From: Takakia lepidozioides
Lineage: Eukaryota > Plantae > Bryophyta
Assembly (NCBI GenBank): GCA_030704615.1
Contig: CM060731.1
Coordinates: forward strand, 30,380,001 to 30,444,000
Direction: 5' to 3'
Length of the DNA stretch: 64,000 nt
A model generated the notes under the pieces. That model searched no databases. It worked only from the letters and a program-made list of their open reading frames with translations, and was not told the origin of the DNA. This document shows, one piece after another, positions 251-58,588 of the stretch. The translations under genes and the position numbers were made by a program. Numbering within the stretch: the first letter of the stretch is position 1; each line of letters opens with the position of its first letter.

Positions 251-770
251 CAATTCAAGAGAAAAAATGCAAGATATAAGCTTTTGAACTTACATTTAAA
301 ATTGAATATGATTGCGATGACAATATATACATTATAAATAATTAAGAAATTTTGATAAAGACTTTATAACCAAGGGAGGTGCATTCATTGTAGGTTTTAT
401 GTGGGGAAGCTATAACATGGACTTGCCATTTATTGACACTGATGATATATGGTCTCTTCTCTAGTGAGGAGCCAAGAAACGGCTAGTGAAATCTATTTTC
501 GTCTATAATAAACTTATCATCCATTTATTTTTCATCCGTTGTTCAATAACATAGACTAGGGTAGCCTATGCCGTTGGCCCAGGCGTCCAGTGTCATTTAA
601 GCCCAAGTGTAAGATCTTCTATGTATCCCAGTGCGTCTCATATGTCAAGGCCCAAATGAGACCTCTAGGATAGCCTATGCCTTTGGCCCATGTGTGAAGA
701 TTGAAATCCAAGACCAAGTGCAATTTTCTATGTATCCCAGTGCGTCTCCTCTGTTAAGGCCCAAGTGCGA

Positions 771-2106
771 GAGAGAGAGAGAGAAGACTCCGGCCGAAGC
801 CGGCGTAACTAAGAGCCATTTCGCCTTGCGGCTATTGCCCCCTTTCGGAGGTGGCCCTATTAAAAAAAAAAAATGTTATGTGGGACATCAGGTGACCGTA
901 GAAAATAGGGGGGTCTGTGGTACCCCTGGGGACCTAGGGTGCGTTCGAAGAGCCGGATTCCACTTGGCGTTTGTTGGTGATAATAGTTGTGTGGGAGCGG
1001 AGTACCGTGAGGTGAATTGCTTTGAAAAATTTATGGATGGGGAGGATGGGGATTTTGAAGTTATCATGTATATCGTTGATACTGGCAATATGGATGTCGC
1101 CTCTAGTGCCGGCGGTGATGACGATTAATGGACCAGTTTTCCAGCTGCGCCGTCGGATTGCAAGGATAAGCGGTGCATATTTTTGTCATTTTTCTAAGAT
1201 CGAGTCGTTAGGGTAGGCGTATCTGATTTTAGTGTTTGTCGGATTTGTGCATCAGTGGTAGCTTTGGTTAGCCAGAAGTGGTTTCAGAGTTTATGGTGCA
1301 ATACGTTGGATTGCATCCATTTTTGGATGTGTACTTTGGTATGGCTGATGGAGGCTGCAGCGTGTTTATTTGCTTCTCGGGTAAGAGTGGTCAGAAGGTT
1401 ACGGATGGGTCTAGGTGCAGGGGGGTCTGGTACGGGGTGTATAAACCAGAAAGGATGGGTATGGGCGATGTGGATAGGGTTGTCAATGGGTACAACTGTG
1501 GATTGGGAAACGCCGAGTTGGGCGAATAGGTCCGCTTCCTCATTACCATGAATGCCAGTGTGCGAACGGACTTTGAGTATATGGATTGGATGACCTTTGG
1601 AAATGGCCCTCTGGACAATGGCGACAATGAGGTTGCGGTCGGGGTGATGATGATGGGCAGAGGGGCGGGAGATGTGGTTTCGAATAAGAAATAGTGAGGT
1701 AAGGCTGTCGGTGAAGATGTAGTATGGGGGAGGGAAGGCGTCAAGTGTAGAGAGAGCATCGTAAATGGCCATGAGTTCAGCCCTTAGGATGGTGGCAGAG
1801 CCAAAGAGCCTGAGGGCAACACCTCGACCGGTGCCGGCGTGATAAATTCCGTACCCTGCATTAGGTTTGGTGAGGGATCCATCAGTGTAACGTGAGTTGG
1901 CCGGTGGATACTTGGGGGTGGTGTTTTGCTGATATATTGCGGGGATTGGGGGGAGGGGTGTTGTTGGTGTGACCTGGGGACGGGGGTAGCGCCATGCTCC
2001 CCCCTTTGTTTGTTTTAATCCGGGAAAATGTGGTGGCCGGTGCATGGGTGTGGGGGAGGGTCGCTGGGTAATGGATGGTGGCCTTTATTTTATGAGTTAT
2101 GGTTAG
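771..2106 (-). mobile_element. 5'-truncated non-LTR retrotransposon (RNase H plus restriction-like endonuclease tail; Dualen/RandI-like)
   Basis: 9-bp TSD CAAGTGCGA at 762-770 and 2107-2115; (TC)n 3' tail. ORF 1284-2045 has RNase H motifs YTDGS, RAELMAI, IFTDSLTS and KVRSHTGIHGNEEADLFA. After a stop and a frameshift it reads EK*QKYAPL...W...LIVITAGTRG. Confidence 0.85.
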
Positions 2107-2407
2107 CAAGTGCGACCTCTAGTGTAGCCTACGCCTTTGGCTTATGTGTGAAGAATTGAAACCTCAGACCAAGTGCAATTTCTTATGTATACAAGTGTGT
2201 CTCTTATGTCGAGGCTCATTTAAGCCCAAGTGCAAGATTCTATTCATGTATCCAAGTGCATCTGTCTGTAGAGGCCCAAGTGTCCAGTGTCATCTAAAGC
2301 CCAAGTACAATCTCCTATATATCCAAGTTCATCTCCCATGTCAAGGCCCAATTTGTTTCTTTTCAAGAATTCATTGAGTAATAATATACCCAATCATTAT
2401 TGATATA

Positions 2408-3369
2408 TGTTAGAGGGCTGCTTGGGACTTAGACGCTTTTACGGGATCTGTTACACAGACTGAGACCAACAGGAGCCTTAGGGGTGACAGCAATAGGCTT
2501 TAGGGGGGGGGAGATACACAGCCCGACACAGTCCATCACAGTCCAACACAGCCGACACAGTCATCACAGTCGTCACAGCTTCGCACAGCCAACACAGCCC
2601 GTCGCAGTCCGACACAGCCGACAGCTTCGCACAGCCGACACAGCCCAACACAGCCGCCACAGCTTCGCACAGCCCTACACAGCCCGACACAACCAGTCAC
2701 AGCCTAATACAGCCAGTCACAGCTCGGCACAGCTGGGGAACAGTTATCATTGGCAGGGAACGACTGTGGGGGAACGACATCTGAAAAAAGAACGTGTACT
2801 ACAGGGATGACGGTTAATTAGGAAAGCGGTTAGAACAGCTTGTAGGGAAAAAAAGCGAAGAGCGGGGACGTCTGGGAATCACTTCTTGGGGGGGGGACTT
2901 CTGGCATCACGGCTTGGAAATAGGGGGGAGAGTACATCTCTGAGTGGAAAGATGAAGAGCACGGAGTAGGAGAAGTGACGATCTGTTGTTACTTGATGAA
3001 TGCAAGCTGTAGAATTGTAATGTAGAGTAGATTAGAGACACCATGGCTTCAGTCTGATACTTGATAGATATTAATCTGATACATACTTCATACTCACACT
3101 GTGTAGAGAGACCTGAGTGAAGCTGTGGAATAAATGGATGGAATTTGATAGATTTCTGAAGCAAACTGATACTTAATTGCAGACAGTAAGGTAACTCGCT
3201 AACATGAATGCGGGAAGGAGTACAAATAGGAAACACCCCCATGATACACTAGCTGTAGGTCATGACTGATTGTTCTGAGCGGGCTAAGTGCTTAGAGATT
3301 TCCAACTCTTCTATCTTGGAGTTCCCACCTCGGATAGCGAAGGGATGGGTGAGTAAAAGCCGCTCGACA
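2408..3369. mobile_element. Solo LTR (962 bp)
   Basis: Starts TGTTAG and ends TCGACA; 5-bp TSD ATATA at 2403-2407 and 3370-3374. Removing it restores the host repeat seen intact at 4241-4285. Internal ACAGCC/CACAG degenerate repeat at ~2515-2735. Confidence 0.85.
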
Positions 3370-5750
3370 ATATATCTCCTGTCGAGGCTCCAATCATTGT
3401 CCAAGTGTCTAGTGTCATCTACGTCCAAGTGCAATCCCATATATATCCAAGTGCGTCTCATAACTTGTCTCTAACTTATATGGAGGCCCAAATACGACCC
3501 TCTAAGGTAGCATGTGTCGTTGGCCCAAGTGTCCAGTGTCATCTAAGCCCAAGTGCAATATCTATGTATCCCAGTGCACGTCGAGGCCCAAGTGCGACCT
3601 CCACGGTAGCCTGTGCCGTTGGCCATGTATGAAGAATTGAAATCTAAGACCAAGTACAATTTCATATGTATCCTAGTGCATCTCATATGTTGAGGCCCAA
3701 GTGCGACCTCTAGTGTGCCTATGTCGTTGGCCCATATGTGAAGAATTGAAATCTGAGACCAAGTATAGTTTCTTATGTATCCAAGTGTGTCTCCTATGTC
3801 GAGGCCCATCTAAGCACATGTAGATGCCCAAGTGTGCAATGTCATCTAAGCCCAAGTGCAATCTCCTATGTATCCAAGTACGTCTCCCATGTCCAGGCCC
3901 AATTTATTTTTTCCATGAATTTCCTATGTATCCGAGTGCGTCTCCTATGTCGAGGCCCAAGTGCGACCTCTAGTGTAACCTATGTCGTTGGCCCATGTAT
4001 GAAAAATTGAAATCTAAGACCAAGTGCAATTTCCTATGTATCCAAGTGTGTCTCCTATGTCGAGGCCCATCTAAGTCCAAGTGCGATATTTTATTCATGT
4101 ATCCAAGTGCATCTCCCATCTAGATGCCGAAGTGTCCTATGTCATCTAAGCCCAAGTGCAATCTCCTATGTATCCAAGTACGTCTCCCATGTTCAGGCCC
4201 AATTTATTTTTTTCCATGAATTTATTGAGTAGTAATGTATTCAATCATTACTGATATATCTCCTGTCGAGGTTCCAATCATTGTCCCAGGAAAGCCCATT
4301 TTGCCATTTTTCACGAATTTTCAAGTGTAATCTCTATTCATGTATTTAAGTGCTTCTCCCATGTGGAGGCCCAAGTGCGACCTCCGGTGTCCAATGTCAT
4401 CTAAGTCCAAGTGCAATCCCAAAGCCCACTTTGCTATTTTTGCAATCTCCCCTATCGAGGCTTCATATATTGAAATATCCACTTTGCTATTTTTTGCGAA
4501 TTTTCAGCGACCAAAAGTACTTGAAATTCCAAATCTCCCACATGAAGGGCCAATCATTGCTCTAGGAAAACCCAAATTCAATCTCCTGTTATCCATGGAT
4601 AATATGTTGGCCAACTCCGTCTCCAAATTTTATGAAACCAAGTTGATGCACCCCTACTCATCGAGGACTTTCCAACAGTACCGAAATAGGCCCCGCCGTT
4701 TGGAGGCCCATCTAAGCCCAAATTCAATCTCATATTATCCATGGATAATATGTTGGCCAACTGCCATATAGACGCCCAAGTGCGACCTCGAGGTGTCCTT
4801 CCAACACTTAATTTTGTAATTTATTTGAATTTCCAAAGACCAAATTTTATGAAACCAAGTTGATGCACTCTGGCCTACTCATCGAGGGCTTACCAACGGT
4901 ACCAAAATCGTGGCCAAAGGCCCCGCGGTTTTGGGAGATCTCAACGACGTTACAAAACATATTGTGAACGCCAATATTTTAAAATGACCCAATTTACATT
5001 TATATCCACGTGCACAAAAGAGAAATGAAGGGCCAATCATTGTTGCAGGAAAGCCCATTTTGCCATTTTTCACGAATTTCCCGCAACCAGAAGTACTTGA
5101 AATTCATTTTAGGCATATCTAATCATTTTTTTTCCAGAGAGCCTACGACCGGACGTGAACCGGAGACCTTTCCCTTGATATCTCTCCTCTCGAGGCTCGA
5201 ACCATTGTCCCAGGAATTCCCACTTTGCCAGTGACCCAACCTACTTGAAATTCCACATCTCCCACACCGTAGGTCCAAAAATCATGAGACCAAGCCCGTG
5301 CACCCCTGCTCGTCGAGGGCTTTCCAACGGGACCAAGCACCAGGGCTGGGGCCTCGTGGTTGGGGACATCTCAAAACAAAACAAAACAAACGTCTCGCTT
5401 CATATATTGATATTACCTGACAGAGGTGTTACCTGGAGAAGGCACATTGGAAATGAGAGGAGTGACATGTAAGGAAGGCACAAGATGGGCTTAGCGATTT
5501 TTGACACTGATGCGTAGTCGAGCCAATTTTACAAAATGGCTAATCCTAGTAAGTTCATCCAAGGTGTCATCATCCTACTCTACTGAGCATCTGTCCATCC
5601 TTATGGGGAATAAAGTGAGGGGAGGAATCCCGCCCCAAAGGGTCTCCTTCCCCTTTCTGTATTTTTTTTAAAAAAAAACTCTCTACACCAGAACAAACCA
5701 AGGACCGTTCCTTCCTCCGAAGTTTGTAGAGCTCCAGATTCTATGGCGGT

Positions 5751-8228
5751 TGTCATGGTTTTAGTCATGGTTATTTAGAATTACCTACTTCTAGTTAACT
5801 AGGACATCTTTAGATATTTATATTTATATTTTGTGTGTTGGGACTTCATTTCGTCTCACATGCCAAGTGAGGTGTCGAGCCTCACTTGCGACATGGGGAT
5901 AGGTTTTCCCCTTGTGAGGATGGAGGAGGCTCATCTTCTTGTAGTTGAGCCTCCATGAGCCTCTCTCACCTCCATAGCTCTAGGTATGGAAAGGGAGTGT
6001 GGTGAGGGCTTTGCAGGGTGGATTCCCTTAGCAAGGGTACCCTTGGCTTGACTTAGTTTATGTGATTGAGTGGATTCATGAGTGGAGGGTTTCCATTATG
6101 TTCACTTCCATTATCACTACAAGAAGATGACCTTATGCTTGTGAGTGCGGAGTATAAGGATAGTTTTGCACTTGTGTTGGTGTACACCAAGGAGTGAGAG
6201 AGCTAGGGAAAGCTCAGGTATCTCACAAGGCTTGCAAGGTGTTGCAAGGGAGAGTGTGTTTGCATTGCATCAAGGAGGTGGAGAGCTCAAGGAGAGAGCT
6301 CTTGAGTTACAAGACTTTGCAAGTATTGCAGGGAGAAAGTCTTGTATGTGTGGAAGCAAAAGGTTTGAAAGTTTGAGCAGAAGGAGCGTCATCTCTTATA
6401 TCTCAAGTGTTGTGACAACCATTTGCCAAGGAAGTGGCTTCTATGGTGAAAAGAATGCATTGAGGGTTTGTAGAAGCATTATTGTGCACCAAGGGTTTGA
6501 GAGCTTGGAAATGAGCTCTTGCATCACAAGAGAAGCGTCTTGTGTGTGGAGAAAATAGACACTAGGGTTTCAAGAGCAAGCTCTAGTTGTTCAAGGTGTG
6601 AAAGAGAAGCCAAAGAGCGGTACATGCTTGGGTTAGAAACACCATAGAAGGAGTACAACAAAGAAAGGTTGAGGAGCATTGAGTAGCTCAAGAGAAGCTA
6701 AGAAGTGGTTGTTTTATCCACGGTGAAATGAAGCCAAGTGGGGTTTCATTTGGTTGATAAACAAGCAAGCTAAGGCGCTAGAAATAAGTGCTTTTGCTAG
6801 TCTATGAGTTCTTGGATTGCTCTTGGTGAAGCAAGTGGTTGACCAAGCAAGTGGCGCATGTGTGCAACTTCAAGCTTGAGGAGAGCTAGAAGGTGAAGGG
6901 AACAAGTCATTCTTTTGTGTATGAGGTGATGCTTATGTGGAGCATGTTCTCAGCCCATTGAGGCTTCTATTTTCAAGCCTTGGAGAGAAAGGAAAAGGGC
7001 TGATTTCCACTTAGGTGAAGGAAAAGCACTTGTAGAGCACATGTTTGAGTTGGGGTTTCAACCTTAAGCTTGAGGAGAGCACGACTCTTGAGCTAGTAAG
7101 TGAAGGGACTTGAATCTTCCTCTTTGCATGAGATATGCTTGGAGAAGCCTCACATAGAAGCCAAGAATGGAGCATGTGTGTGGATGGCCAAAAGAGAGCA
7201 CATGAATGAGTGCAAGACTTGGTTGCTTGTCAAATGAGGTTAAAAACTTGATTCTTGAGCTCCAAATAAAAGTGAAGCTTGTTGTGTGGCAAATGCATTG
7301 CTAGGTGAGATGGAATCAAGCTTGGTTGTGGCTTGAGATGAAGAAGATCAAGGTAGTTTGCCTTGGTATCTCATAGAATTCATGGATGCTTGAGGAGAGC
7401 AAGCATGAAGTTCAAGGAAGCCCAAACCCTAGCTTGGAATGCACAAACCCTAGCATGAGATGCACATGAAACCCTAGGTGGATGGGAACAGTCACCAATT
7501 GTGGGAACGGTCACTATACGTTGGGAACATAGTGACATATAAAGACAATGTAGGGCTTTTGGAGGATTTTCAAGGGCCTTTTGGAGGATTGTTTGGGGGA
7601 TCTTTGGGGTCCTTTGGGGAGCTTTTGGAAGACACTCTGATGAGCTTTTGTAAGGTACTTTGACGAGCTCTTGAAGAGGTATTTGGATGACTATTTGGAG
7701 GTCTATTTGCGGTCCTTGAAGGCCAAGTTTGACAAGTTTTTGGAGCCTTGGAAGGCTATGTGGAGGACCATTTGGGGTCTTTGAAGGCCAATATTTGGCA
7801 AGTTTTTGGAGCTTTTGGAAGGCTGTTTGGAGGGCTGTTTGGGGTCCTTGGAGGCCGATATTTGGCGAGCTTGAGGAGTCTTTGGCGACTTGTTGAAACT
7901 ATTTGGGGTCCTTGAGGGCCGAGATTTGGCAGGCTCTTGTGGGCTTGGTGTACTGCTTGGAGTACCATTGTCCAAGCTTTGGGAGTCTTAGTGAAATTGT
8001 TTGAGAGACATCTTGAGGGATCTTAGAGAGTTTTTTGAGAGATCCTTGAAAGGTCTTGTCTATTGCTTAAGCAAGAGAGTGTGGAGATAGGGTAGTGGGA
8101 TGAGAGCATGTTGTGATAGGGATTGCTTTAGTCTCTCTTCCTTGTAGTCTTCCACCCTCTCTGTAGGCCAAAACCTTTCCGTAGGTGGAGGCAAGAGTCA
8201 GTCCGGGTTTGGGCTGGGGTGTCTTGCA
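5751..8228 (+). repeat. 5' LTR (~2.5 kb)
   Basis: Starts TGTCATGG. Homologous over most of its length to the inverted copy at 30886-33464 up to GGGCTGGGGTG (8221). Probable end ...TCTTGCA at 8228. Confidence 0.7.
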
Positions 8229-8645
8229 GGAGCGACACTGTGAAGTGTTTTTGGTGTGGGGGAGTTACTGTTTTGATTTCCTTGTGCTTGGATCCCCTCC
8301 ACACATGCATGCTTGACTGTGCGCCATGTTAGTTTTGTGTGGGCGCTTGTTTTCATAGGAGGTTGGTCCGGATTTGATCACCGGTCAATCCTAGAGCGTG
8401 TTGTCGATGGTGAGGCTGGGGTGATGACCAGTCAAACCATCATTATTCTCTTATGGTGAGGCTGGGTTGATGACCAGCAGACCATAGGAGTGCTTGCGGT
8501 GGATGCAGGTGCAGGTGCAAGTTTATGTTATGAACCTAGTAATCTAAGCCATAAGCTGCAACAGATTCTCTACCCGGTTACCTTGTGGCAATGGGGATTA
8601 GAGACAGGTTTACAACAGGCGTGGTTGTGAGTTTTCATCACGGAG

Positions 8646-10330
8646 ATGCCACCAGTTGTTGAGGGGAGTGCTGGTACGAACACCAGCGATACTAGTGGGT
8701 ATACAAGACGAGGTGTGCGGTTTAGGCCACCTTCACCTTCAGTGTCTTCTGAGGAAGGTTCAGACTCAGAGTTAGGAGGATTCTCGCCGAGGGTGCAAGC
8801 CATTTCCGTGCCATTATTGTGGGATACGATGGAGGAAATGTATGGAGCTACTAAGGGGCCATGTCGGTACTCTGGAGCTGTGGGCACCATTAAGCTTGAT
8901 GATTTCATACATGAGTTTGATAGTTGGTGTGATTTGCAGCAGATGCGCAATCCACAACTGTTTACGCCTTTTATGGCGTGGAAGGGGCTGTTTCAGCACC
9001 TTGAGGGGCCCCCTATGGATGACTATCATGAGTTTAGGTGGGGAAATGAGGTGGAGATTGAGGAGTGGCGACAATATTGGTCACCTGACTATGTCTCCAT
9101 CACTAGAGGCATAAGGGCAGCGGCGACACCAGCAGCAACACCAACATCTCCAACTGCAAGCACTAGTAGTCGGACAAGTAAAGATGGAGCTGGGAAATCC
9201 ACTCAAGCTCCTGCTGCAGCACCACCACCCGTGCCTGCCTTTAATCCAGTTGTGGAGTTCTTCGAGGAGTTCAGGAGAAACTACCAGGGGATAAGGACGG
9301 AGAAATTGCGGAGCTTGCAAGAGTTCCAACGCAAGCCTACTGAGAGTTTGAGGGAGGCTTACACACGCATGAGGCGATTGATAAATGTAACCCAAGGGGT
9401 TACGGAAGCTCAAGCAGTCCAATTTTGGTATGGGATATTGGACAAGGAGCTGAGGAGAAGGGTGCGGGATGCAACTCTCCTACAAGTGGACCAACCTACC
9501 TTAGCAAACGTGTTTTTGCTGGCAGAGCGGATAGAGCTCAATATGGTGGAGGAGCGAGTGGTCATGGTGGGGTTTGGTAAGGAGACACAACGAAGTGGGG
9601 CTCCTAGCCAACAACAACCACTACCCTAACGTGCTCAAAGCAACAAGGGGGCTCAGGCGAAGCCCAGGGAAGGACAGAGAGGATCTCAATTGCAGAGGTC
9701 ACTTCCTTCATTCTCAGACCAACAACAGTCGGGTGTAACATGTTGGGATTGTGGAGGACCCTATGTTAAGAGAGATTGCCCGTAGAGAGGCAAAGGGCCG
9801 GCACAGGCACAACCTACACAACTACAATGTGGGCATTGTGGAAAGTATGGGCATGAAGAGGCCCATTGTTATGACTTGCATCATGAGTTACGGCCAGGCC
9901 AGTTCCAAGAGAACAATGGTGGCCGGGGACGAGGCAATATAGTCCAGAGAGGTAGAGAAGACAGAGGTCGCGGTGGAGGTCATAACCAAAACCAAAGAGC
10001 ACAAGGTCAAGGGCAAGGTCATGACCAAGGCATGGTGGATAGGCTTGCCCAACTAGAGCAACGTCTTGCTACCATGGCCACTACTCATGTTGCGACAGCT
10101 CCAAGGCCTGAGGTTCAAGCCCCACCTGCACAACCTCCTATGCCTAGGGAAGACTAGATTGGTATGGGCTTCATGTGTGGAGCCGTACTTGCAGGACCAT
10201 TGCATGTGGACTCGGCAGCTGCTGTTACTCGAGCAACAACACGTGCTTCTGAACCAAGAGGAACGGATGTGGATTTTGATCCACAAAGGGGAGAAGCAAG
10301 TCGTCAGACAAGGCTTCCACAGTACATTGG
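8646..10330 (+). pseudogene. gag: gag (capsid-like region plus CCHC zinc knuckles), interrupted by stops
   Basis: ORF 8646-9629 has the retrotransposon gag motif FQRKPTESLREAYTRMRRL...AVQFWYGIL. The same frame continues to CWDCGGPYVKRDC and CGHCGKYGHEEAHC (CX2CX4HX4C) at ~9741-9870. Confidence 0.85.
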
Positions 10331-10740
10331 CTGAGACAGTGCCACCTACGCCATCAATAGCACCCGCTCGCCCAAGTGTGTCAGAGGTAGAGCCACGAAT
10401 ACCATTGGGGAGAGTTGGTGTGGCTCGGGAAATGCCAGTGGGTGGTGTTGTAAAACAAGGTGCAGCCAGTATATTGTTGGGGGCGGCTATGGCGGTTTGC
10501 CAAGCTCCATTATTTTCTGCAATAGTCATTACAATACCGGGGATTCGTCCAGCTGTTGTGTTCAGACTAGCAGCTAGACTCTGTGAGAGTGGTGATGCAT
10601 CGGCACTATCTGCGGAGATAACAGATAAGGTGCAGTCTATGGATGCTTTGGATTCGAGGGTGAAATCAGCCACAGCTGCGCCATGGCAAGCGGCAACTGC
10701 AAGGTTGCAGGAGTTGTCAGCTAGGCCAGCCATTGAGCGC

Positions 10741-11200
10741 AACATGGTGACTTCTGGGGTAGTCCTGGTGGACAATCATGATGGAGTGTTTCAATTGGGT
10801 GGCCTAACCGGGAGGAGGTATAGGCCACTGCGGGTCTTGTTGGACTCGGGAGCACAGCCATTGATGTTGGGGAGAGCAGCAATTGCAGGCTTGGGCCTCA
10901 CAGAGGCAGATTTGGAGCCGTGCCCTTTCCAAATTCAAACATCTTTGGGTGGTTCAGAGAAGGCGCGAGGGATTACACGCCATGAGCTCTTCATTCGATT
11001 GTAGCTGGATCATCCTACGGATGACTCAGTCATGAGAGCTAAAGCCATTGTTACGGACGCGATGTCCTATGATATGCTTGTTGGTGGGGCTGTGTTGTAC
11101 CCCATGGGCTTTACTTTGGACTTTTGGGATGAAACGACATCCTACAGGCCGGAATGGCAGTCAGGGGATGGTCGACGTGCACTGCTCCCAGTGCGGTTTA
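10741..11200 (+). pseudogene. Retroviral-type aspartic protease
   Basis: RVLLDSGAQPLMLG active-site motif (~10831-10872) and C-terminal YDMLVGGAVLYPMGFTLDF; one in-frame stop at 11002-11004. Confidence 0.85.
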
Positions 11201-11544
11201 TTGGGAATGTAGCGGTGGATCATAGGAACATGATGCCCACATTGGCTGCATTCTCAGGGGTGGTGGCTTGGGGTGGTGAGCTCTTGGAGGGCAATAGTCA
11301 TGCAGATGATAGGACACCATCTGATGAGGACAAGCAATTGTCATACAAGGCTGATTTGCTTCCTCATGTTCCTATGCATAGCTCACTGTGGAATGCAGTT
11401 GGGGATTTGGAGCGAGTGGCAAGCCAGTGTGTGCAACAAGCATGGCATGAGGCCTTTCCATCGGTAGGTGAGGGGAGTTCAGTTACATCACCTGTACCTC
11501 CTCAATGAGCTCCATTGAACACAGTGCCTATTATCTGGCAACAA

Positions 11545-12500
11545 CGTGACTCAGACATTTGTTTGCTAGACCTGTTTGGAGGTATGAGCACTGGGCTTGC
11601 AGGAGTGTTGCAAGCAGGAATCAAAGTACGCAAGTACTTGTATGTGGAGAAGGATGAGATTACTTGGCGTGTTTCCATGCGCCATGTTGTCTTGCTCACA
11701 CATCAGTATCCTGAGTTGTTGCCAATCTTAGCAATTCAAGGGTATCAAAAGGCCTTGCCAACAGACATTACCTTGCTAGAGGCGGATGATTTGGACCGGC
11801 ATGGTGTCATTGACTTGGTGATAGCTGGATGGCCTTGCCAAGGACACTCTCCCGCAGGTCATGGGAATGGCTTGCATGATGCATGATCGCATTTGTTTTG
11901 GGAGATGTTGCGAGTGTTGCGTGACTTGTAGGTGAGGCAAGTGTAACCTCCAGCTTACATCCAGGAGAATGTTCCTCTCATGGGGGATTCTCGGGCCGGG
12001 GTTATGGCCAGTGTGCATCAAATCCGGTCATGGATTGGACCAGCTGTATTGTTGGATGCAGCTGTAGTGGGTTCACGGGCATATAGGCCTAGGTTGTGGT
12101 GGACCAATCTTGCACCACTAGAGTTGCTCAAGAGAGCCTATGATTCCATTCAACGGCCACCCAACCTCACGGTTGAGGGCATTTTGGACCAATGGAGGCA
12201 ACCACAGAGAGTACGACATGATGATCGTCCACCTTTGGCGGTGGTCAATCGAGTGGGGCAGCCACGTGCAGCCTTGCCTACGCTCATGAGCTTTCCCTCG
12301 TCTCATGCTTTTTGAGACAATGGTCATGGGTTGATTTGGGACAGTGTGTTATAGCAAAGCCCAATACGGATGAACGAGAGCGGGCAATGGGATTTGCCAC
12401 GGGCACTACAGCTGTGCCAGCTCTGTCAGAGGTATCACGACGTCAGGTGTTGGGTCAGGCAATGGATCTCAATTGCTTGACATGGATCATTGGCTTGTGT
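11545..12500 (+). pseudogene. DNMT3-like DNA (cytosine-5) methyltransferase domain inside pol
   Basis: Motif I LLDLFGGMSTG (11563-), II YVEKDE, III DITLL, IV DLVIAGWPCQG (catalytic Cys at 11836-11838), V SHLFWE, VI QENV (ENV at 11965-11973), VIII LDAAVVGSRAYRPRLWWTNL, IX ERERAMGF...T, X RRQVLGQAM. It is in frame with the protease, with stops and one frameshift near 12315. Confidence 0.92.
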
Positions 12501-13031
12501 ATGGCTGAGCAATGGAGATTGCAAGCATTGGTGGCTACTTCCGCTCTCCCATTGGATATTGCACCCTCTCTGCCAACCGGGACAGTGAAGGCAGTGAGTG
12601 GGGGCGAGTATAAGATCATGGGGTGCAAACACCCATGGCAGATGTGGGATGAGATGCGCAAAGAGAGAGTCATTGGATCTCTCAAGCAGTAGTATGAGGA
12701 GTGGGGAGAGCCATACACTGAGGATCAGTTGGAGGACAAAGTGGCTAAGGTTTTTGAAGAGGTTGAGAATGTTTATTGTTCAGAGGATGTTCTCAAGGTG
12801 GCTATGGCGGAGCAAGTAGAGGCTACGCCACAGTCAGAGTGGGCGGATAAGGCCCAAGAGGTTGCTATCTAGCAACCAAAGGATTCGTCTCCTACCTCCA
12901 AGCCTGGTGTACCCAAGGTTGCAGTCACTGAGGACAATTGGGAACCAGATGTTGGACCTACAGTCACCCGAGGAGAGAGACGGAGGATCCAGCGATTTCT
13001 AAGGGCTTATAGAAATTGCTTTGCCTTCGGT

Positions 13032-14385
13032 TTGAAGGATTTGGGGAGTTTGAAGGGCCAGGAGATTCGTATTGATTTGGCAAGTGATACGCCAATTTTT
13101 CGAAGGCCCTACAGGTATAGTGATATGGAGAGGTCTTTGATCCAGTCACGGATTATGAAGTTGTTCGAAGCTGGATTGGTGGAGTTGTCAGGCGGGGAGT
13201 ATGCCTCGGCAATGGTGATGCTAGTTAAGAAGGATGTCTATGGCAATTGGACAGAAAGGAGGATGTGTGGGGACTACCGTCCTGTGAACCGTCAGACTAA
13301 GTCCAATAGATATGCCATGCCAACTCCAGAGGAAATCTTTGATGCCATTGGTTATGCAAAGGTGTTTAGCACATTGGACTTGCGATCCGGTTGCCACTAG
13401 TTGCCGATCAAAGAGGCTGACAAGCAAAAGACGACATTCTGGGGGATTGACCAACATGAGAAGGATTGTTTGTACAAATGGCGGTTCTTACCGTTTGGGT
13501 TGAAGAATGCTCCTGCAGAGTTTCAGAGGGTCATGGATAGGATTTTCGCGGGGCTAGACTTCGCCCGGTGCTACATTGATGACATCATCGTCTTTAATGC
13601 TACGGTTGAGGAGCATGAGAGACACCTTCAGGTGGTGTTTGAGCGCTTAAGAGCGCACGAGTTGAAACTGCACCCCGGAAAGTGCAAGTTCTTCCACAAT
13701 CAGATTGAGTATCTGGGCTACATGATATACCTTGGAGGATTGGGTGTTCAACAGACAAAGGTGGAGGCCATTGCATGCATTCCACGCCCCATGGATGTGA
13801 GCAGAGTTCGTGCTTTCATGGGATTGGCAAACTACTATCGACGGTTTGTCAAGGGATTTAGCAGCATTGCAAAGGCTCTTACCAAGTTGACCAAGGTGGG
13901 TCAGGAGTGGCAGTAGGAGGAGGAGCAGGAGGAAGCCTTTGAGGAACTCAAGGCTCGATTGACTTCTGTACCTATTCTGAGGCGGCCTATTCGGGGGCGG
14001 CCTTTCTAGCTACATACGGATTGAAGTATGCTGGGGATTGGAGCAGTGCTCACACAGGTGGATGATGAGGGAAGAGAGTTCGTAGTGGCATATGCTAGCC
14101 GCTCGAACAATGATGCCGAGGCGAAGTATAGTTCCTATGAAGGGGAGTGTCTGGCTGCAGTATGGGCAGTGGCACATTTTAGATACTACCTCTATGGCAA
14201 TCTCTTCATTTTTGTCACGGATCCCCAACCATTGAAGTGGTTGATGGAGTCAGACAAGCTTACAGGGAAGCTTACACGGTGGGCACTTATGCTTCAAGAG
14301 TACGACTTCTAGGTGGTGCATCAAGCCGGAATAATCAACTAGGATGCGGATGGATTGAGTCGCAATCCATGCACAAGTGAGCTTG
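13032..14385 (+). pseudogene. pol: Reverse transcriptase and RNase H (Gypsy pol)
   Basis: RMCGDYRPVN, FSTLDLRSG, LPFGLKNAPAEFQR, YIDDII, VRAFMGLANYYRRFV. RNase H: VAYASR, YSSYEGECLAAVWAV, FVTDPQPL, ADGLSR. Confidence 0.95.
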
Positions 14386-14559
14386 ATGATACAGGAGCTT
14401 GTTGGCATGGTGAGACGGACGAGGAGATGGTGCCAGGATGGCACGCATCTGTTTTTTTATGCATTCTAGCAATGGGAGCTCAAGCTGGTCCATCCCATGT
14501 GATTGGTCATAGCGATAGTGTGCATGACGATCCAGAGATCAGTGAGGAGCTTGGTGGTG

Positions 14560-16007
14560 CTAAGGATGTACATGAAGATGTAGCAATGTTGGCCTACCTT
14601 CGTACTGGAGAGACAGCAGCCAGTATGATTGCTAAGGAGAGAGATCGGATCCTACAACGAGCCAAGAGGTTCAAGTGGGAGGGGACTCACCTACTCCGAG
14701 TATGGGAGGATGGACAAGTGATGATTGTGCCTCATCCAACACAGCGAGCGCGATTGGTACGCCCAGCCCATGAGTTGGGACATTTTGGGGTGCGGCGCAC
14801 TCATAGTTTGCTGCAATGACATTATTGGTGGCGGGGCATGCACACGGATGTGCAACAGTTAGTGGCAAGGTGCATGGTGTGTGATAGAGTGCGGGCTTCT
14901 TTAAATGCACCTACTCCACAATTGCATCATTTATCCATTATGGGTTTGGGCTATTGTTGGGGTCTTGACTTCGCAGGCCCATTGCCACTAACGATTCGCC
15001 ATAACAAGTATGTGCTGGTGATGGTGGAACATTTCTCCAAATGGATTGAACTGGTGGCATTGCCTGACAAGGCAAGTAAGGGGGCTGCGTATGCATTCTT
15101 AGATCGAGTGCTTAGCCAATTTGGTGCTCCAGCCGAGGTACTCACGGACCAGGGGAGAGAGTTCTTGGGGAGTTTTCAGGCTTTGTGTGAGCAAGCCTTG
15201 ATAGATCACCGCACTACTTCTCGGGATCATCCCGAGGCTGACGGCGTGGAGGAGAGAGTTGTTCAGACAATCAAGAGAGGTTTGCGCAAGTATGGTTTGC
15301 AGAAGGGACACCTAGGAGATTGGGACCTTCAGCTGCCTTGACTAGCTATGGGCTATAGGTTCAGCAAACAAGCTTCACTTGCCTCCTTCTCACCTTACTT
15401 TCTTATCTTTAGCCGAGAGCCAGATTTGTCTGCATCTATTCGCAGGGAGACTGCAGTAGTCCTCAACCTTGATGATCCGGATGTGTGGACACAAACATGT
15501 GCCCAACGGGCAGAGTTGTTCAAGAGAGTCATGCCTATGGCTTTTGAGAACCTTGCTATTGCCCAACACCGAGACACATTGAGGTACGCCACTATACGTG
15601 GAGGGGGATATCGGCCAAGTGTTCGGCGTTTCCATCCTGGGGACTATGTGTATCTGCAGCAGACAGCGCCTACGACCTTGGATGTCACAGCAGGTCGTGT
15701 GATTCTAAGGGTCCGGGAGGTGTTGCCTTCAGGAGTGTTGATTCTGGAGGGTCGAGATGGCATGGTATGGAAGGACCATGTACGCAATTGTGCGCCATGT
15801 CACCTTCCACATGTGGATGAGAGGATAGATCCCAAGCTTGCAGTGGTACCTACAGGGTTGCATTGCATGCTATGTGGGCATGCTGGTGGTGCCGCGACCA
15901 TGTTGGTGTGTGACAATAGGGGGTGGCATATAGGATGCTTGACACCGCCACTTAAGGAGGTTCCTAGTGGAGAATGGTTGTGTCCACGATGCCTTGGACA
16001 GAGGTAG
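14560..16007 (+). pseudogene. Integrase with C-terminal PHD finger
   Basis: HELGHFG...CMVC zinc finger; WGLDFAGP, LTDQGREF and GVEERVVQTIK catalytic core. C-terminal CMLC...MLVCDNRGWHIGCLTPPLKEVPSGEWLCPRC at 15864-16007. Confidence 0.92.
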
Positions 16008-16350
16008 TGGGGCATGACAGTGGTGAGGTTGACAAGTAATCCGAGGTCTAGCTAACGGGAGTTCAATGCCATGGACACCCAATTGGAGCCATGGATTGCA
16101 GGAAGGCGAGTAACGATGGGGCTACTTTTGCACCCGACATCTTGATCTATTACCTTCAGATATGGGACTTGGGCGATTGATGACCACACGATGATCTTAT
16201 TGGGATGGATACTCGTCAGCTATCCGGTGTTAGAGGGACCTAATCACCAGCTAGGGGGGCGATTGTGGTATAGCTTTCTAGGATTGTGTGCTTAGATTGT
16301 GTGGTGGACATCGATGTATATTGTGGCACGATGCTTAGGTGCACGATAGT

Positions 16351-16758
16351 TGTCATGGTTTTAGTCATGGTTATCTAGAATTACCTACTTCTAGTTAACT
16401 AGGACATTTTAGATATTTATATTTATATTTTGTGTGTTGGGACTTCATTTGGTCTCACATGCCAAGTGAGGTGTCGAGCCTATGGGGATAGGTTTTCCCC
16501 TTGTGAGGATGGAGGAGGCTCATCTTCTTGTAGTTGAGCCTCCATGAGCCTTTCTCACCTCCATAGCTCTAGGTATTGAGAGGGAGTGTGGTGAGGGCTT
16601 TGTAGGGTGAATTCCCTTAGCAAGGGTGCCCTTGGCTTGACTTAGTTTATGTGATTGAGTGGATTCATGAGTGGAGGGTTTCCATTATGTTCACTTCCAT
16701 TATCTCATGCTTATCTAGAATTACCTACTTCTAGTTAACCATGACTAAAACCATGACA
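16351..16758 (+). repeat. Truncated 3' LTR copy capped by an inverted LTR start
   Basis: 16351-~16704 matches 5751-~6114. It ends in ccatgactaaaaccatgaca, the reverse complement of the first 20 bp. Confidence 0.85.
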
Positions 16759-18671: not shown

Positions 18672-18953
18672 TTAATGGAGGGTGGCCAGACTAGATATAG
18701 TTTTGAAAAATGATTTATGAGATTTTTGAAAGACTGGCTGAAAATCTAGGTGTGAACTAAAAATCTAAAGCTTGTAAAACTGAAAACTGAAGTATTTAAA
18801 ACTGAAGAGAAAATAATGAACACATATGAATTGCAAGTTGCACAATATTGTCGAAATAGTCATATATTGCAACCAAAAACCACATACAACTCACAAAAAT
18901 TGATTACTAAAATCCAAACATGTTGTGTGGGCTATGATGTCAAAGTAATTTAG

Positions 18954-19511
18954 ATTGTACTCATAAGACGTTGTTTGCCGTAGCCTTGTGGCCATTGACC
19001 CCACGCCCAGTTTGAGCGGGAACAAAAGGGACAGAACCTACCTCTGTCAGGGGCTGACGTTGGTAGTAAGACTTACCTCCATATAAAGAATTAATCCGGG
19101 TTTTCCAGATATCCTCTAGAAATCCCTTCACACAAGCATCAATATGTTGTGTGTGATTTGCCCAAAAACTAGGCCTCAGGAGGCCCTGGGCTTTTGGCTC
19201 AGCCTCGAGACTTTCAAAGTTGGTAAACAGGGGTACAAGCACAATTCCATTTAATAGATTTGAAGAGAGCGTCTCTTTGGTGAGAGAACCTCGGACAGTG
19301 TATCAGAAAATGAATACTGTCTTCAGATTGCCCACACAACAGGCAATTGCACTCTCCCTTTCATCTCTGCTTCTGTTTGTTGTTCAAAGGTAGGCTCCCT
19401 GCCCTGAGTTTAAATTTCAGTCTAGTGCCGAGAGTGGGTAGACCCTTGAGGTCATCCAAGATGTCCTCCCCCATGCCACAGACTGGAAACAAGTTCAAAG
19501 AAGTTTTCTGC
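18954..19511 (-). mobile_element. LINE 3' fragment (same family as 40459-41525)
   Basis: Near-identical to 40459-41013; encodes ...LLRPSFWANH.Q.IDACVKGFLEDIWKTRINSLY. Confidence 0.85.
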
Positions 19512-20839
19512 ATATGGAGTTGCCTTGCATATGTGAGAAGATTGCTTACTTACAATGAGCAACTAAATTATGGTGCATCTCATATGGGAGGACTTCAAGA
19601 AAAGAAAAACAGCGGGTTGCCCTCTCCAAGGGTCTCACAGGCTTTCCATCATCAAGGCATTCTCAAATGTGCTTCATGTGGGACGTTTTTCTTTAAACCC
19701 CGTATGGGATTTGGTTGGATTTGAAGAACACGTTGCTTAGTTTATTTGCTGCATTCAAGAGCATATTACATTATATGGTTGCTTTCAGGTGTATCATACT
19801 TCAGCCTTTGTAATCCGTTAGTATATGCTCGGACTTACTCGGATTTGATTCGAGGGCATATGTGGTACACACTCGTTTGAAGGGTGGAGTAGAAGACGAG
19901 GTGATGTAGAAAATATGAAAAATCAGAAAACCAACAAACTTGGTGTTAGAGATGAGAAGAAAAGATACTTACAAATAAATGTAAAGAGGAGAAGACTTTG
20001 AATATACAAAGAGGTCATTACCTTGGAAGCTATTTGGTGTCCTCCATGGGTTGTGTGTGCATTATGCACTCCCTGCAAAGCGGCATATATGTCATAAAGT
20101 TTCCAGGGCCTCTGTCCCCTGTATATATATTAATTTATACATATGAATACTTGTTTTTGTATTCTAGTTGGGTTGGAGTTTGGATTGGGATTAGGTTTGG
20201 CATCATGTAGTTCTCTAGCGAACTACACATTACACTATGTATGTGTGGTTCGCCGGAGAACGAACCCGAGCCTATTTCTGAACCTAAACCGAGCCTATAT
20301 CCGAAGCCATCTTATTGGTGCCGAATCGATAAACTTCGTCGAACCTAGGGGTCTGATTAGATTCTCATGTCCGAACCTAAAAAAATTTGGCCGCTCACAT
20401 GCTCACCACCGCTCATCCCCTCCTAAATGTTCTATGAGCTGCTAATATGCACTATATGAACAAAGAAGTATGTAGAAGTAGTACTTCTGTCACCTCTTCA
20501 CCTATAGAATTTCTTCTTGGCTTTATCATTCAGTGGTACCAATGGCGTTGGCCCTAGCTTTGCAGAAGATGCCGCAGCCCCTAACCTATACTCCGGGGTT
20601 TTTTTTTTCATGAGCTAGGTTAGTGATATAGTGCATACTGACTATATATCACAATGAGGTATCCTATTTTATCATGAGCTCATTCCCGGAACCTAAGCTG
20701 TCCAAGTTCTGGGCTCTTTCATCAAGTTTCCTGCAACTTATATGCCTGTTAATTTGCAATGACTTGATAGAGGTGTTGTTTGAAAAGAAAATGCTATACA
20801 ATGATGCTTGACATTGCAGCTATTTGCATTACACAAGAG

Positions 20840-33464: not shown

Positions 33465-34281
33465 CATACGTGCAGCCTCTATCAGCCGCACCTCCTTTGT
33501 GAATTGTATATCGACATGTCTGTTGGCGAGAAATCTGAAGAAATTGTGTCTCATCTTGTTTTGATGCTTTGAAACCAAGTGCAAATGCTTAATGCAGTGC
33601 TTTCAACCATGTACTGCAGTGGCGTTTCCAATGGCATGGCAAGTCTCCTGGCAAAGACTCGCCCCAAATCGCCTACATTCCATGGGATTGCGTTGCTGAT
33701 TTCATTACTGGGGAGTCCTCCTGTGCAGATGGCCCATGCACTTTTCACAAACATCAGCAAAGAGGCTGTCCGGAGGGATCTCTCTTAGCTCCTCGCACCA
33801 ACAGTGCTTTGACTATATCTTGAAGGTGCAGAAGAAGTCTTAAGACCGAAAAGGTTCTCCTAGCCACACCAATAATGCTCGTAATACATTAAAACAAACC
33901 TGTTCTAAGCATCGATTATCGAGAAGCTCATCCATAATCAGAGCAAACTAGCGAAAATTGAGCCTGGAAGTCGTGGCAGGGTGTTTGATATGTTTCCAAT
34001 TCATATCTCTCTCAAATTTTGGCGATGCCGTGGAGTGGAGCTCGGAGGTTTCTCCAACGTTGAGGGGGGAGAGGGTTCCAAATGCAGAGATCATGCTCAT
34101 CCTTTGACAAATGATGCCATGGCAGGCCCACGAAGCTATGAAGGCGGCATAGATTCATGGCGCTTGCCTGGGGGCCTTTTTGCAGTCTGCAACAGATAAG
34201 TATTTTCATTCTCTGGTGCTGAACATATAATGGCCACTTTCAATAAAAATACAAGAAGAGCTATTGATATAGTTACTATTT

Positions 34282-35020
34282 ATGGCTGAACGAAATGTGG
34301 TGTCGTGGAACACGATGCTTGTAGGGTATGCACAGCAGGGGCGCGGGATGGAGGCTTTGGAGACATATGATCAAATGATGTGCGAAGGGGTGAAGCCCGA
34401 CCTCATCACGTTTGTGTGCGTTTGCAGTGCGTGTGCAAGCCTGGCAGCCCTGGAAAAGGGCAAAGATGTGCATGGCGACATCGTCAAAGCTGGAATTGTA
34501 CTAGATATGATCCTGAACATTGCCCTGGTGGACATGTATGCCAAATGTGGGTGCATCGAGGATGCAAAGGGAGTGTTCGACAATATGGCTGAACGAGATG
34601 TGGTGTCGTGGAGTACGATGATCGCATGATATGCACAACATGGTTGTCATAGGGAGGTCGTGCAACTATTTGAAGGAATGCAAAAGAACGGCTTGAAGCC
34701 GAATAGTATCACCTTTATATGTGTTCTCTCTGCATGCAGTCACGCTGGCCTACTAAATGAAGGAAGACGGTACTTTGATTCCCTGACTCAAGATCATGGT
34801 GTCACTCCGATAGTAAAGCACTTTGGCTGCATGGTGGACCTTCTTGGACCTGCGGGACAACTAGATGAGGTAGTGGACCTGATTAATAAAATGCCCATCA
34901 ATCCAGATGTTGTGGTGTGAAAGGCCTTGCTTGGTGCCTGCAGAATCCATGGCAATGTGGAGATGGCTAAACGTATAGCAATATCTATCCTCAAGGAGAG
35001 CTCGTATTTTGTCAGTAAAC
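34282..35020 (+). pseudogene. PLS-class pentatricopeptide repeat (PPR) gene fragment running into the E domain
   Basis: ERNVVSWNTMLVGYAQQGRG.EALE...VKPDLITF, ALVDMYAKCG.IEDA..VFD.M, LSACSHAGLL.EG, HFGCMVDLLG.AGQL, LLGACRIHGNVE. In-frame TGA at 34627 and 34918. Confidence 0.9.
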
Positions 35021-40431: not shown

Positions 40432-40463
<32 letters not shown>

Positions 40464-44199: not shown

Positions 44200-46409
44200 C
44201 TAGTCGCTCTTGTGTTCGGGCCTTCTTGAGAGCATCTTTCTCGATCTTCTCGGCTGCCCGCTTTGCTTTACCTTGCAGGGTCTCCTCTTTTTCTGCTCAC
44301 GAGCTTGGGTTGCTTCTTCTTTTAGTCTCACTTTTTGCTCTAGTGCTGCCAAGTATACATCAGATGTCATTATAATTGACTTGTTGTAGTCTATAATAGG
44401 TTCATCTCCTGATGCTCTTACCCTTCGATCGACTGCATGAGCCTCTGGGAGCGTCAAGAATCGGGAGATTGATGAAAGGACCTCTGGCTGGCTGGGAACC
44501 ATCTCCCAGTCTGCGTTATCATCGAACTGCACTAAGGACTCCTGACTACTGCGAAAGTGTGGCTGGTTGTCATCGCCCCTTTCCTGGTCATTGCGCCCAT
44601 CCTCATCTAGCTCTTCGACCACCACAAAGTAGTGGTGGTGATTATCTTGTATGCTGGGCACATGGTTGCCCAACACCTCTTCCACATGAAGGGCAGAAAG
44701 TACGTCTTTTACCTCCCCCTCAGGTGTATCCTCGTCCATTGATTCTGGCCTGATCTCCTCGGCGTGCAGGTCTGGTGTCCCCGGCCCTGAGAAACATTCT
44801 GCCGGCCCCATCTTTCCTGCCATGGCTTCTGGATTCAGAGGCCAGATCCCAGAGGTCTTGAATCCCTTGGCAATGTTGGTAGGGGTTAGTCCTTTTTTTC
44901 AATGCAAGGGAGACCCATTGGGCCAGATCTTCTTTCAACGCTCCTCTTCCTTTATGTGCCATGGTCCAAACATCTCTATATTTCCTGAAGGCAGTCTTAA
45001 AGGGCTTGAACACTGCCACATCAAGGGGCTGGAGTGCATGGGATGTGTGGGAAGGAAGTGTAATGACATCAAGTCCTACTGATCTTGCTTGCTTGACAAT
45101 GTCTAGGGTGACGTGTGAGTTGTGGCCATCCAGAATTAGCAAATGCCTGTTTGTGACGGTAATGTCATTGCCCATTGCCTTTGCTGATTCCAGAAAATGT
45201 GATATCCACTTGTGAAACAATATTGCAGTCATCCATGCTTTTCTTTGCATTGCCATTGTTGCTCCATATTCATATTTGTGAATGTAATTGCGACAACATC
45301 TTTTCCCTTTGAATATGTAGAAGTTTGGGATGTAACTTCCTGCAGCATTCATGCAGATGAGGACGCTCAGCCACTCCCTCTGATCTGGTGTTATAGAATG
45401 AATAGATCTGGATCCGGTCTTGGCCAGCACAACAGCACCTCCGTTTCGCCCAGCTTGGGCCCGTGACTTGTCACAATTCCATATCATTGTTGGCCCATAG
45501 TTGTGCTTCTCATACATCAGTTTCAGGTTAGCATAGAACGTCTTTACGTTCTCTGGACATAGTCCCTTGGCCCTCCCAATTTCTAGTCCTTGAGCTACTC
45601 TCAATGAAAGATGTGGATGTCGTGACCTGAACCATCTCACCCACCCCTAGCCCGAGATTCCATTTGTGAAAGGTGTGACTTTCTCGTGCGTAACTTCAAC
45701 CACCTTCAGACGTAGTTGAGTTAGTGTCAAGGGATGCCTGATATCTTGCATTTTTTCAATATACTGGACTAGTTCAGCTTCTTCCTTGGCGTTTAATGTC
45801 CCTTTGCTGCCTCTCTTCCTACTAGTAGTAACGCCATAAACGTGGTTTCTCAGACTTGTTGCAAGCACTTCAAACATCCTTGCTGCGGATCTGATGCTGT
45901 CTCCACGGTCAACGGCAGCCACGACACCTCGCAACTGTTCATCAGTCCAGTTTCCATTCTTGAGAGGCCTCCTCCCTCTCCTTGGGCGGCCCCCACGCAT
46001 AGCAGGTCCATCAGATCAAAGAGTGTTAATGTCGGCAGGTCCTTCAGTATTTGTCTCTGGCAATGTTGTTGTCTGGTCTAGCTGTACTGCAGATTCTGGT
46101 TGACGTTGGCCTTGGTCCACCTGAAATTCAACTTGATCTTGGGCTTGGGCTTGGCCCACCTGAAAATTCAACTTGGGAATCCTCTCCATGGCCCCACTGG
46201 AAATTTTCAAGGCCATCATCCTCACTTTGACCTCCATCATTTGCATGTTTATACCTTTCATTGTATCCGTCATCTGAGTCACTTGTGAGTGGTTGGCTAC
46301 TGATCTGCGTTCCATCGCTATCATCAGCTACCTCGGTATCTGGCAACAATCGAAAAGCTTGGCTGGGCCTGAAATTCAAGTCCATCGCTGTTGCACACTC
46401 CTCACTCAT
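44200..46409 (-). mobile_element. pogo/Tigger (Tc1/mariner superfamily) transposase, degenerate
   Basis: HTH-psq WTDEQL..VAAVDRG.SIRSAARMFEV..TSL, then CENP-B-type HTH, then DDE_1 motifs IWNCDKS, LLILDGHNSH and HALQPLDVAVFKPFK. Stop at 45647; frameshift near 44895. TIRs not found. Confidence 0.88.
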
Positions 46410-50318: not shown

Positions 50319-58183
<7,865 letters not shown>

Positions 58184-58588
58184 GCTAGGAAATTTTCCGA
58201 ACCCAATTCGAAGAGGGCGCGAGTAAGAGTTTCCCGCGAAGATTGAAGATGCTACCTCGACCACCATCCATGAAAATCTGAGCCCGAGCTTCCACCAACT
58301 CTCACCAGACCCGCAAAGCTCCCACACACAAGATTTCTTGCTACCGCCAGAAACACAGACCTTAGTGAATAACCTGAAGTCCTTCCCTGTCTGCTATTGC
58401 AAGTGAAGTACTACATGAGTCAGACAAATATTATCTTTACACACATAAAGATAAAGATAAAGTTTCTTTAGCGTCAGAAGACCCCCTGTGGGCGGGGCCA
58501 GGACGGCCACGGGACGGCCGGCGTAACCAAAGGATTGGTCATTACTTTCAGTAAGAAGACAGTGGTAAATCAAGAGCAGGCCAAGATT

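Follow-up and report, generated by a model that had tools for sequence, protein, structure and literature searches.

Introduction

The closest described counterpart of the element reported here is KnitGypsy-Dnmt3 of the alga Klebsormidium nitens, which de Mendoza et al. (2018; PMC5890265) termed an acquisition of the K. nitens lineage. In the available text of that paper, its DNMT3-type domain, set among Gypsy domains, is intronless, unpermuted and under purifying selection, and its DIRS-like repeats follow the arrangement A-coding-B-A-B. The same text describes SymbioDIRS-Dnmt3 of Symbiodinium, a split-repeat retrotransposon whose DNMT3-type domain methylates CG de novo in yeast. Here we analysed 64,000 nucleotides of the bryophyte Takakia lepidozioides (assembly GCA_030704615.1, contig CM060731.1, positions 30,380,001 to 30,444,000 of the forward strand), called the window below and numbered from its first letter. 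The window holds a decayed Ty3/Gypsy retrotransposon with a DNMT3-like cytosine methyltransferase, a kind of element that has already been described from one alga, Klebsormidium.

The Takakia element and its relatives share with KnitGypsy-Dnmt3 the Gypsy domains and the intronless, unpermuted and selected DNMT3-type domain. The A-coding-B-A-B repeats described for the alga (PMC5890265) are also shared; they are complete in three related loci (L035, L021 and L044) and take the form A-coding-B-A in the window. The two differ in that the algal DNMT lies in one open reading frame (ORF) with reverse transcriptase (RT) and ribonuclease H (RNase H), whereas a conserved stop stands between them here; the domain would join the RT/RNase H frame only by the readthrough proposed below, or in distant members such as P0142. 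In addition, the host is an alga there and land plants here, and the available text of PMC5890265 mentions no PHD finger, self-priming or readthrough. Compared by description and not by sequence, the element probably works like KnitGypsy-Dnmt3 and shares its origin. The likeness to SymbioDIRS-Dnmt3 lies in a DNMT3-type domain within a split-repeat retrotransposon, but that dinoflagellate element has a tyrosine recombinase, whereas the family studied here has a DDE integrase and 4-bp target duplications. Self-priming in place of a tRNA primer recalls the Tf1/Sushi elements and the plant Gypsy element Tcn1 (Neumann et al. 2019, PMC6317226), which differ in being chromoviruses with ordinary long terminal repeats (LTRs); methyltransferase, methylase and homeodomain go unmentioned in the available text of that paper.

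A 2026 preprint (10.64898/2026.05.21.726589) refers to 'streptophytes (Gypsy-DNMT3)', with land plants unnamed in its main text as available. An element-borne DNMT3 in land plants was not found in the accessible parts of PMC6317226, PMC11982613, PMC10952607, PMC9516144, PMC11244446, PMC6453930 and PMC5784723. In a literature search that mostly lay outside subscription journals, the family names occurred in PMC5890265 and the 2026 preprint only, and no report of a land-plant range, of the position in the Gag ORF or of the stop was found.

Results

The element encodes an unpermuted DNMT3-like methyltransferase under purifying selection

The element spans 5751-16758 on the forward strand and encodes, in order, gag, protease, a C5-methyltransferase, RT, RNase H, integrase and a PHD finger. 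The reading frames of 8646-16007 were translated with X at stops before the Pfam search. In this stop-repaired translation, 11509-12360 matched PF00145 with an E-value of 6.4e-11 and 42.7 bits (cut-off 22), which bears out the methyltransferase call of the initial annotation. RT, RNase H, integrase (rve) and PHD finger all scored above their Pfam cut-offs. The gag match (PF03732; E 5.4e-05, 23.8 bits) fell just under its cut-off of 24.1 and the protease match (PF13650) was weak, with 17 bits against a cut-off of 24.3, but both are backed by homologs, and the order gag-protease-RT-RNase H-integrase is that of Ty3/Gypsy elements. No tyrosine recombinase family was found in the Pfam scan of the element, which has an rve integrase instead and does not fall with the DIRS/PAT elements.

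All the motifs listed by the initial annotation were located, in the order it gave and followed by RT: LLDSGA (10837-10854), LDLFGG (11566-11583), DLVIAGWPCQ (11812-11841), QENV (11962-11973), RAYRPRLWWTNL (12076-12111), ERERAMGF (12372-12395), LGQAMD (12450-12467) and YIDD of RT (13572-13583). Those of the methyltransferase domain (11545-12520) we take to be motifs I, IV, VI, VIII, IX and X of C5 methyltransferases. The copy is dead, as had been noted, with 20 in-frame stops in total (19 examined for context, plus that at 12352). Within the methyltransferase there are five stops and, near 12355-12360, a frameshift; gag and protease are separated by a frame break.

The domain is a DNMT3-like, unpermuted C5 cytosine methyltransferase. 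A profile search of the PDB placed DNMT3A/B/C first at 98 bits, ahead of DRM (56) and HhaI (40), and a second search returned the same order (DNMT3A 75, DRM 43, HaeIII 31 bits). To examine the fold, a structure model was built for the domain of the intact relative L038 from a 41-row alignment (A3), from which L040 was left out owing to an internal stop. The model reached a predicted local distance difference test score (pLDDT) of 95.8, whereas single-sequence AlphaFold of P0001 reached 34.3. DNMT3A was its best match among solved folds (E 1.3e-19; template-modelling scores 0.73/0.83); among the matches listed all 30 rows were DNMT3, the nearest being DNA-bound DNMT3. Profile and fold thus agree with the DNMT3-like, not circularly permuted enzyme that had been proposed. 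Host DNMT3 enzymes (human DNMT3A/B and the plant DNMT3 of Physcomitrium) resemble the element domain in giving the best profile and fold match and in motif order, but are only about 21-23% identical to it, and the element domain is embedded in a retroelement ORF. Neither PWWP, ADD nor DUF3444 was found by Pfam in the window element or in the scanned relatives.

The domain is also closer to DNMT3 than to DNMT2 or prokaryotic enzymes, the phage matches and the listed bacterial ones being far weaker. A prokaryotic or viral origin was considered and rejected: the best phage matches were 23-28% identical and, among the matches listed, bacterial and viral ones were 23-39% identical, bar one apparently misbinned contig. 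The ESM Atlas returned one streptophyte cluster and two phage clusters at 0.96 and does not separate these origins.

The domain is under purifying selection in the family. All 41 aligned sequences have the catalytic Cys, the ENV Glu and the first RxR Arg, and 40 of them have the second Arg; the ratio of nonsynonymous to synonymous substitution (dN/dS) of the domain is 0.08-0.22 in seven divergent pairs, one further pair being saturated. The RT ratio of the L038-L041 pair was excluded, its coordinates being approximate. Elsewhere in alignment A3, Cys replaces the Phe of motif I in 10/41 rows and Glu replaces the Pro before the catalytic Cys in 15/41.

The methyltransferase ends ORF1 at a conserved stop codon

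The initial annotation had the pol frame run from the protease through the methyltransferase into RT. The domain order stood, but a conserved stop cuts the enzyme off from RT. We aligned the window with the 42 of 71 metagenome loci that have both anchors used (29 lack one of the two). In 43/43 rows, a stop lies 72-93 bases upstream of the RT anchor and in the RT frame. It varies between TAG and TAA while the CAR that follows stays: CAR was found in 41/43 rows, and the full CAR YYA in 7 rows and in L072, spread over four branches. In the window, the stop reads TAG CAA CCA (12870-12878) and is the sole one of the 19 examined stops with a readthrough context. As this stop is family-wide and not damage, the frame does not simply continue into RT.

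Intact L038 has an ORF1 of 1369 codons (gag, protease, methyltransferase) and an ORF2 of 1047 codons in the same frame. Likewise, 17 of the 22 long proteins that contain the protease and the last motif of the domain terminate before RT. The enzyme therefore ends a Gag-protease-methyltransferase ORF1. The earlier claim that it is made in a polyprotein holds in that it shares a chain with gag and protease, but this chain is not simply pol, since ORF1 ends after the methyltransferase. No in-frame Met follows the stop for 85 codons in the window, nor was one found in the 109 codons read of L038 and L072.

The CAR YYA context is the readthrough signal of tobacco mosaic virus (TMV), for which the accessible text of PMC2754532 gives readthrough of 6-10% in stable plant assays and of 32% in transient ones, UAA also being effective. 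The same stop and six-base context (UAG CAR YYA) stands at the ORF1/ORF2 boundary here; the TMV stop, however, divides parts of the viral replicase (PMC2754532), whereas that of the element divides Gag-protease-methyltransferase from RT-integrase and comes after rather than before the protease. Judging from this context, RT and integrase are likely readthrough products.

The methyltransferase is a family trait in seed-free plants and algae

Protein searches returned 97 + 42 relatives, 29/139 of them organism-named and all of these from liverworts (Marchantia, Riccia, Calypogeia) or Sphagnum, in agreement with the persistence in embryophytes that had been suggested. The best of them reach 54-66% identity. 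Marchantia proteins such as P0099 (Mp4g09160, with the domain at residues about 880-1205; cluster n=18) contain gag, protease and the whole methyltransferase in one chain; the C-terminal part of the window domain is 60% identical to P0099, and the window gag is 40-50% identical to the N-termini of Marchantia proteins. A metagenome scan identified the 71 loci, which keep this layout on every contig of sufficient length, and a profile search gave 431 clusters at E up to 1e-30.

Among the proteins with both methyltransferase and RT (n=67), the domain precedes RT in 8 and follows it in 59. The latter order characterises a sister group (P0267, P0213, P0126 and 56 more). In the scanned members of this group the domain sits between RNase H and integrase, and most of them have a PHD finger as well. 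Among organism-named members, Closterium shows the domain-before-RT order and Scenedesmus, in a cluster named pol, the domain-after-RT order; the Closterium proteins share both domain order and clade with the land-plant members. No Klebsormidium-named match was found in the protein and distant-member searches, the distant-member query having given 3 proteins.

FastTree trees of 70 rows were built for RT and for the domain, with element domains only, midpoint-rooted and without host DNMT3. The 15 domain-before-RT members formed one group in the RT tree (support 0.99) and in the domain tree (0.977), and RT and domain distances correlated (Mantel r 0.73). Built without host DNMT3, the two trees show long co-inheritance of RT and domain, but not the donor.

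Public DNA runs of the same organism were also searched. In run X1, 45,291 contig records fell on the element and covered all 30 bins, as did run X5 from another study, and a contig of run X8, which belongs to a third study, links protease and motif I, with 82 differences over 684 bases. Contig depth, summed over X1 and not to be read as copy number or as a ranking of the domains, was 51,000-141,000 over the methyltransferase and 182,000-509,000 over RT and integrase, against 68 over one flank contig. Taken together, the methyltransferase is a family trait, and the family is abundant in this organism.

One locus stood out by its source. L072:1-6203 (CADCWO010000201.1, from a Synechococcales metagenome-assembled genome) is a retrotransposon 81% identical to L038 that also shares its stop context; the contig is most likely eukaryotic and misbinned.

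Terminal repeats suggest probable self-priming and a possible unusual route of integration

The initial annotation was right on the domains that it named; the PHD finger, terminal repeats and self-priming site are additions to it. The 5' terminal repeat A1 (5751-6116) starts with TG and ends with CA, and 354 of its bases align with repeat A2 (16351-16704) with 8 mismatches. Its left boundary coincides with a rise in read depth, and a second copy in the window begins at the same base. The 14 bases after A1 (6117-6130) are the exact complement of 5931-5944 within A1, and the fold of 5925-6140 has a z of -3.69, with 0/200 shuffles as good. A different complementary pair occupies the same place in the L003-type subfamily, with 16 nt in 2/11 loci, 9-10 nt in 5, and 6 or none in 4. 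Self-priming of the Tf1 type is a known mechanism. The pairing fits such priming, as in Tf1 and Tcn1, with 5931-5944 as the predicted self-primer and putative 5' end of the element RNA, and 6117-6130 as the candidate primer-binding site, in place of a tRNA site. No tRNA genes were found in the 64-kb window. The sequence CACTACAAG after A1 was also considered as a CACTA insertion; this was rejected, as it is common to the second copy and is the primer site.

At the 3' side, a polypurine tract (16253-16262), near-identical in 10 metagenome loci and L038, completes the priming signals. It is followed by repeat B1 (16264-16348), which starts with TG, ends at a CA-2nt-TG-type junction with A2 and matches six element loci and L038 in position and junction. 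The B|A junction reads CA-2nt-TG in those six loci and L038 and, with one change, in the window. The right end is atypical (16705-16758), with a direct and an inverted copy of the start of A replacing B2, no target-site duplication, and a drop in read depth just past it. This right end is a 54-base fold-back of the left end, in which the hairpin loop has the direct, not inverted, orientation.

In L035, L021 and L044 the repeats read A-coding-tract-B-A-B. TG...CA ends with 4-bp target duplications were found at 4/4 loci with both ends located, and also at L024. The A2|B2 junction corresponds to the LTR right end plus two bases matching the tract end in 5/6 loci, and L021 has an 18-nt filler there. 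In both X1 and X5, contigs were found in which the end of A adjoins the start of B (6115 to 16262), with 23 bases on the short side, so that other copies in this organism likely have B2. Ordinary reverse transcription yields B-A-coding-B-A. To arrive from this product at the observed A-coding-B-A-B, the ends would have to be joined into a circle or dimer that is then cut at B|A, and integration via circular or dimeric cDNA is therefore likely, as far as the repeat order tells. Single-B copies were examined as products of 1-LTR circles but were not counted as evidence: L024 (one B) and L054 (B-A-B) have the same flank, which points to recombination or assembly collapse.

Remaining features of the element and its surroundings

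Between the primer site and gag lies a long leader (6131-8645) with 65-67-nt tandem repeats and no recognised gene, its longest stop-free stretch being 172 codons; it is shared in part with the second copy. Gag (8646-10331) starts ORF1, contains three stops and includes zinc-knuckle-like motifs at 9741-9779 and 9828-9869. A linker and the aspartic protease follow at 10336-11508, in a single ORF with gag in intact relatives. ORF2 (12873-16007), with several stops, encodes RT (about 13260-13727), RNase H (13917-14303), integrase (14736-15233) and the PHD finger (15864-15992). The second copy of the family's 5' part (33464-30886, minus strand) is truncated, 96% identical over 277 nt and without a coding region, and has a 12-nt self-priming pair.

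The flanks contain a pentatricopeptide repeat (PPR) gene remnant with in-frame stops (34273-35000), a piece of an ABC-2 transporter and a multi-exon receptor-like kinase gene (51715-58393, minus strand) whose best solved relatives are plant kinases; the PPR remnant and the kinase are consistent with the land-plant-type neighbours reported earlier. The window further holds a DDE_1 transposase of 307 codons (44720-45646, minus strand) and a family of dispersed, degenerate repeats whose units measure about 100-130 nt (535-5230). A 560-bp stretch, occurring at 18952-19514 and 40456-41017 with 96-97% identity, comprises ORF pieces without a Pfam match and presumably resembles the 3' end of a long interspersed nuclear element.

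Discussion

On balance we favour, with moderate confidence in the chain as a whole, the view that the window element belongs, as a decayed copy, to an old green-plant Ty3/Gypsy lineage whose enzyme methylates the element's own new DNA. Most ribosomes would end at the TAG, giving one methyltransferase per Gag, packed in the particle, while readthrough by a few percent would supply RT, RNase H and the integrase with its PHD finger. By analogy, the protease would free the enzyme. Self-primed reverse transcription would then give a linear B-A-coding-B-A DNA, whose ends may be joined into a circle or head-to-tail dimer; the integrase would cut the internal B|A junction (CA-2nt-TG) and insert A-coding-B-A-B. 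The enzyme, again by analogy, would methylate the double-stranded DNA before or at integration, and new copies would arrive already marked. The more specific picture of a Gypsy lineage that combines a capsid-polyprotein methyltransferase, one per Gag, with readthrough-rationed RT and integrase and a DDE integrase acting on circular or dimeric cDNA cut internally is offered tentatively, as a possibility short of even chances.

Several observations weigh against this account. C-to-T differences between copies (CG 173/1009, CHG 170/849, CHH 361/6122; three pairs of one subfamily) are as frequent at CHG as at CG sites and show that copies were methylated, a pattern that host silencing explains without an enzyme of the element; such counts do not separate methylation by the element from that by the host. 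The KnitGypsy-Dnmt3 domain gave no methylation in yeast, a result that its authors call inconclusive in the available text of PMC5890265. At the ORF boundary, 34/43 rows, all of one subfamily, have CAA CYC and not CAR YYA, followed by an in-frame ATG three codons past the stop, which makes re-initiation possible there. Some distant members (P0142, P0345) have no stop, which seems to have arisen on the branch with L038 and the land-plant elements. As to selection, dS is near saturation in most pairs, so that the ratios are rough, and the close pair L003-L004 has a dN/dS of 0.87, as expected of decay after insertion. P0313 and P0325 shift between the RT and domain trees, both midpoint-rooted and without host DNMT3. 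Finally, the window copy has the tract, B1 and A2 but neither B2 nor a target-site duplication, and its 5' repeat has no B, so that it does not show two complete TG...CA LTRs. The mirror product A-B-A-coding-B, which a circle could also give, was seen at no locus examined.

Alternatively, the enzyme could be active chiefly as a trans-acting nuclear factor that targets integrated copies or the chromatin of the host, rather than cDNA inside the particle, and could serve to limit copy number or to alter host methylation. Placement in ORF1 would yield enzyme well in excess of what a single cDNA requires, a benefit to the host is one reading raised by de Mendoza et al. (PMC5890265, as available), and the host DNMT3 of Physcomitrium makes CHH and de novo methylation according to the accessible text of Yaari et al. 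2019 (PMC6453930). This activity would, however, be a public good and as such less likely to be selected in each lineage, and neither DUF3444 nor another plant-DNMT3 targeting domain was found by Pfam; we consider it unlikely.

The methyltransferase account could also hold with ORF2 translated from a start codon of its own, or expressed from an RNA that is spliced or shorter, instead of by readthrough. The ATG past the stop in the largest subfamily speaks for this, as do three Marchantia gene models that skip the stop region and continue beyond it. The region spans 117-166 aa in these models against 220 in related subfamily DNA, and the shortfall suggests that an intron was predicted across the stop. 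But ORF2 is in frame with ORF1 in intact copies, CAR is kept while the stop itself alternates, and four separate branches have the full CAR YYA with no Met nearby. Separate expression of ORF2 therefore appears improbable to us.

We give still less credence to retention of the domain for another role, for instance to bind nucleic acid in the particle or to methylate RNA. The inactivity of the Klebsormidium domain in yeast would fit (PMC5890265, available text), and abundance at Gag level would suit a structural job. Against this stand the invariant catalytic Cys, Glu and Arg (41/41), the DNA-bound DNMT3 structures as nearest folds, and the CG methylation by the related SymbioDIRS-Dnmt3 domains reported in the same text. 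Capture of a host gene as a single event, a chimeric assembly and contamination can all be dismissed: no listed contig spans the whole element, but Marchantia proteins and metagenome loci keep the same gag-protease-methyltransferase order, the X1 records cover every bin, a contig of another study bridges protease and motif I with its 82 differences, and the listed prokaryotic and viral matches are distant, save the misbinned contig.

Cytosine methylation is the main route by which plants silence transposons. A land-plant element that keeps its own selected de novo methyltransferase would reverse this relation, and the family with the enzyme under selection spans mosses, liverworts and algae. 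What use the enzyme is to the element, a question left open by the 2018 paper, is approachable in Marchantia polymorpha, which has many annotated copies with full catalytic motifs. Labelled as hypothetical or CCHC proteins, these copies can mislead censuses of plant DNA methyltransferases. The permuted repeats offer a direct handle on whether a DDE integrase can use joined cDNA in vivo; they also suggest that standard LTR finders overlook or misinterpret the family. If the account that we favour is true, the model plant Marchantia would harbour a transposon-encoded epigenetic writer together with a non-canonical route of LTR integration, in a lineage abundant in seed-free land plants.

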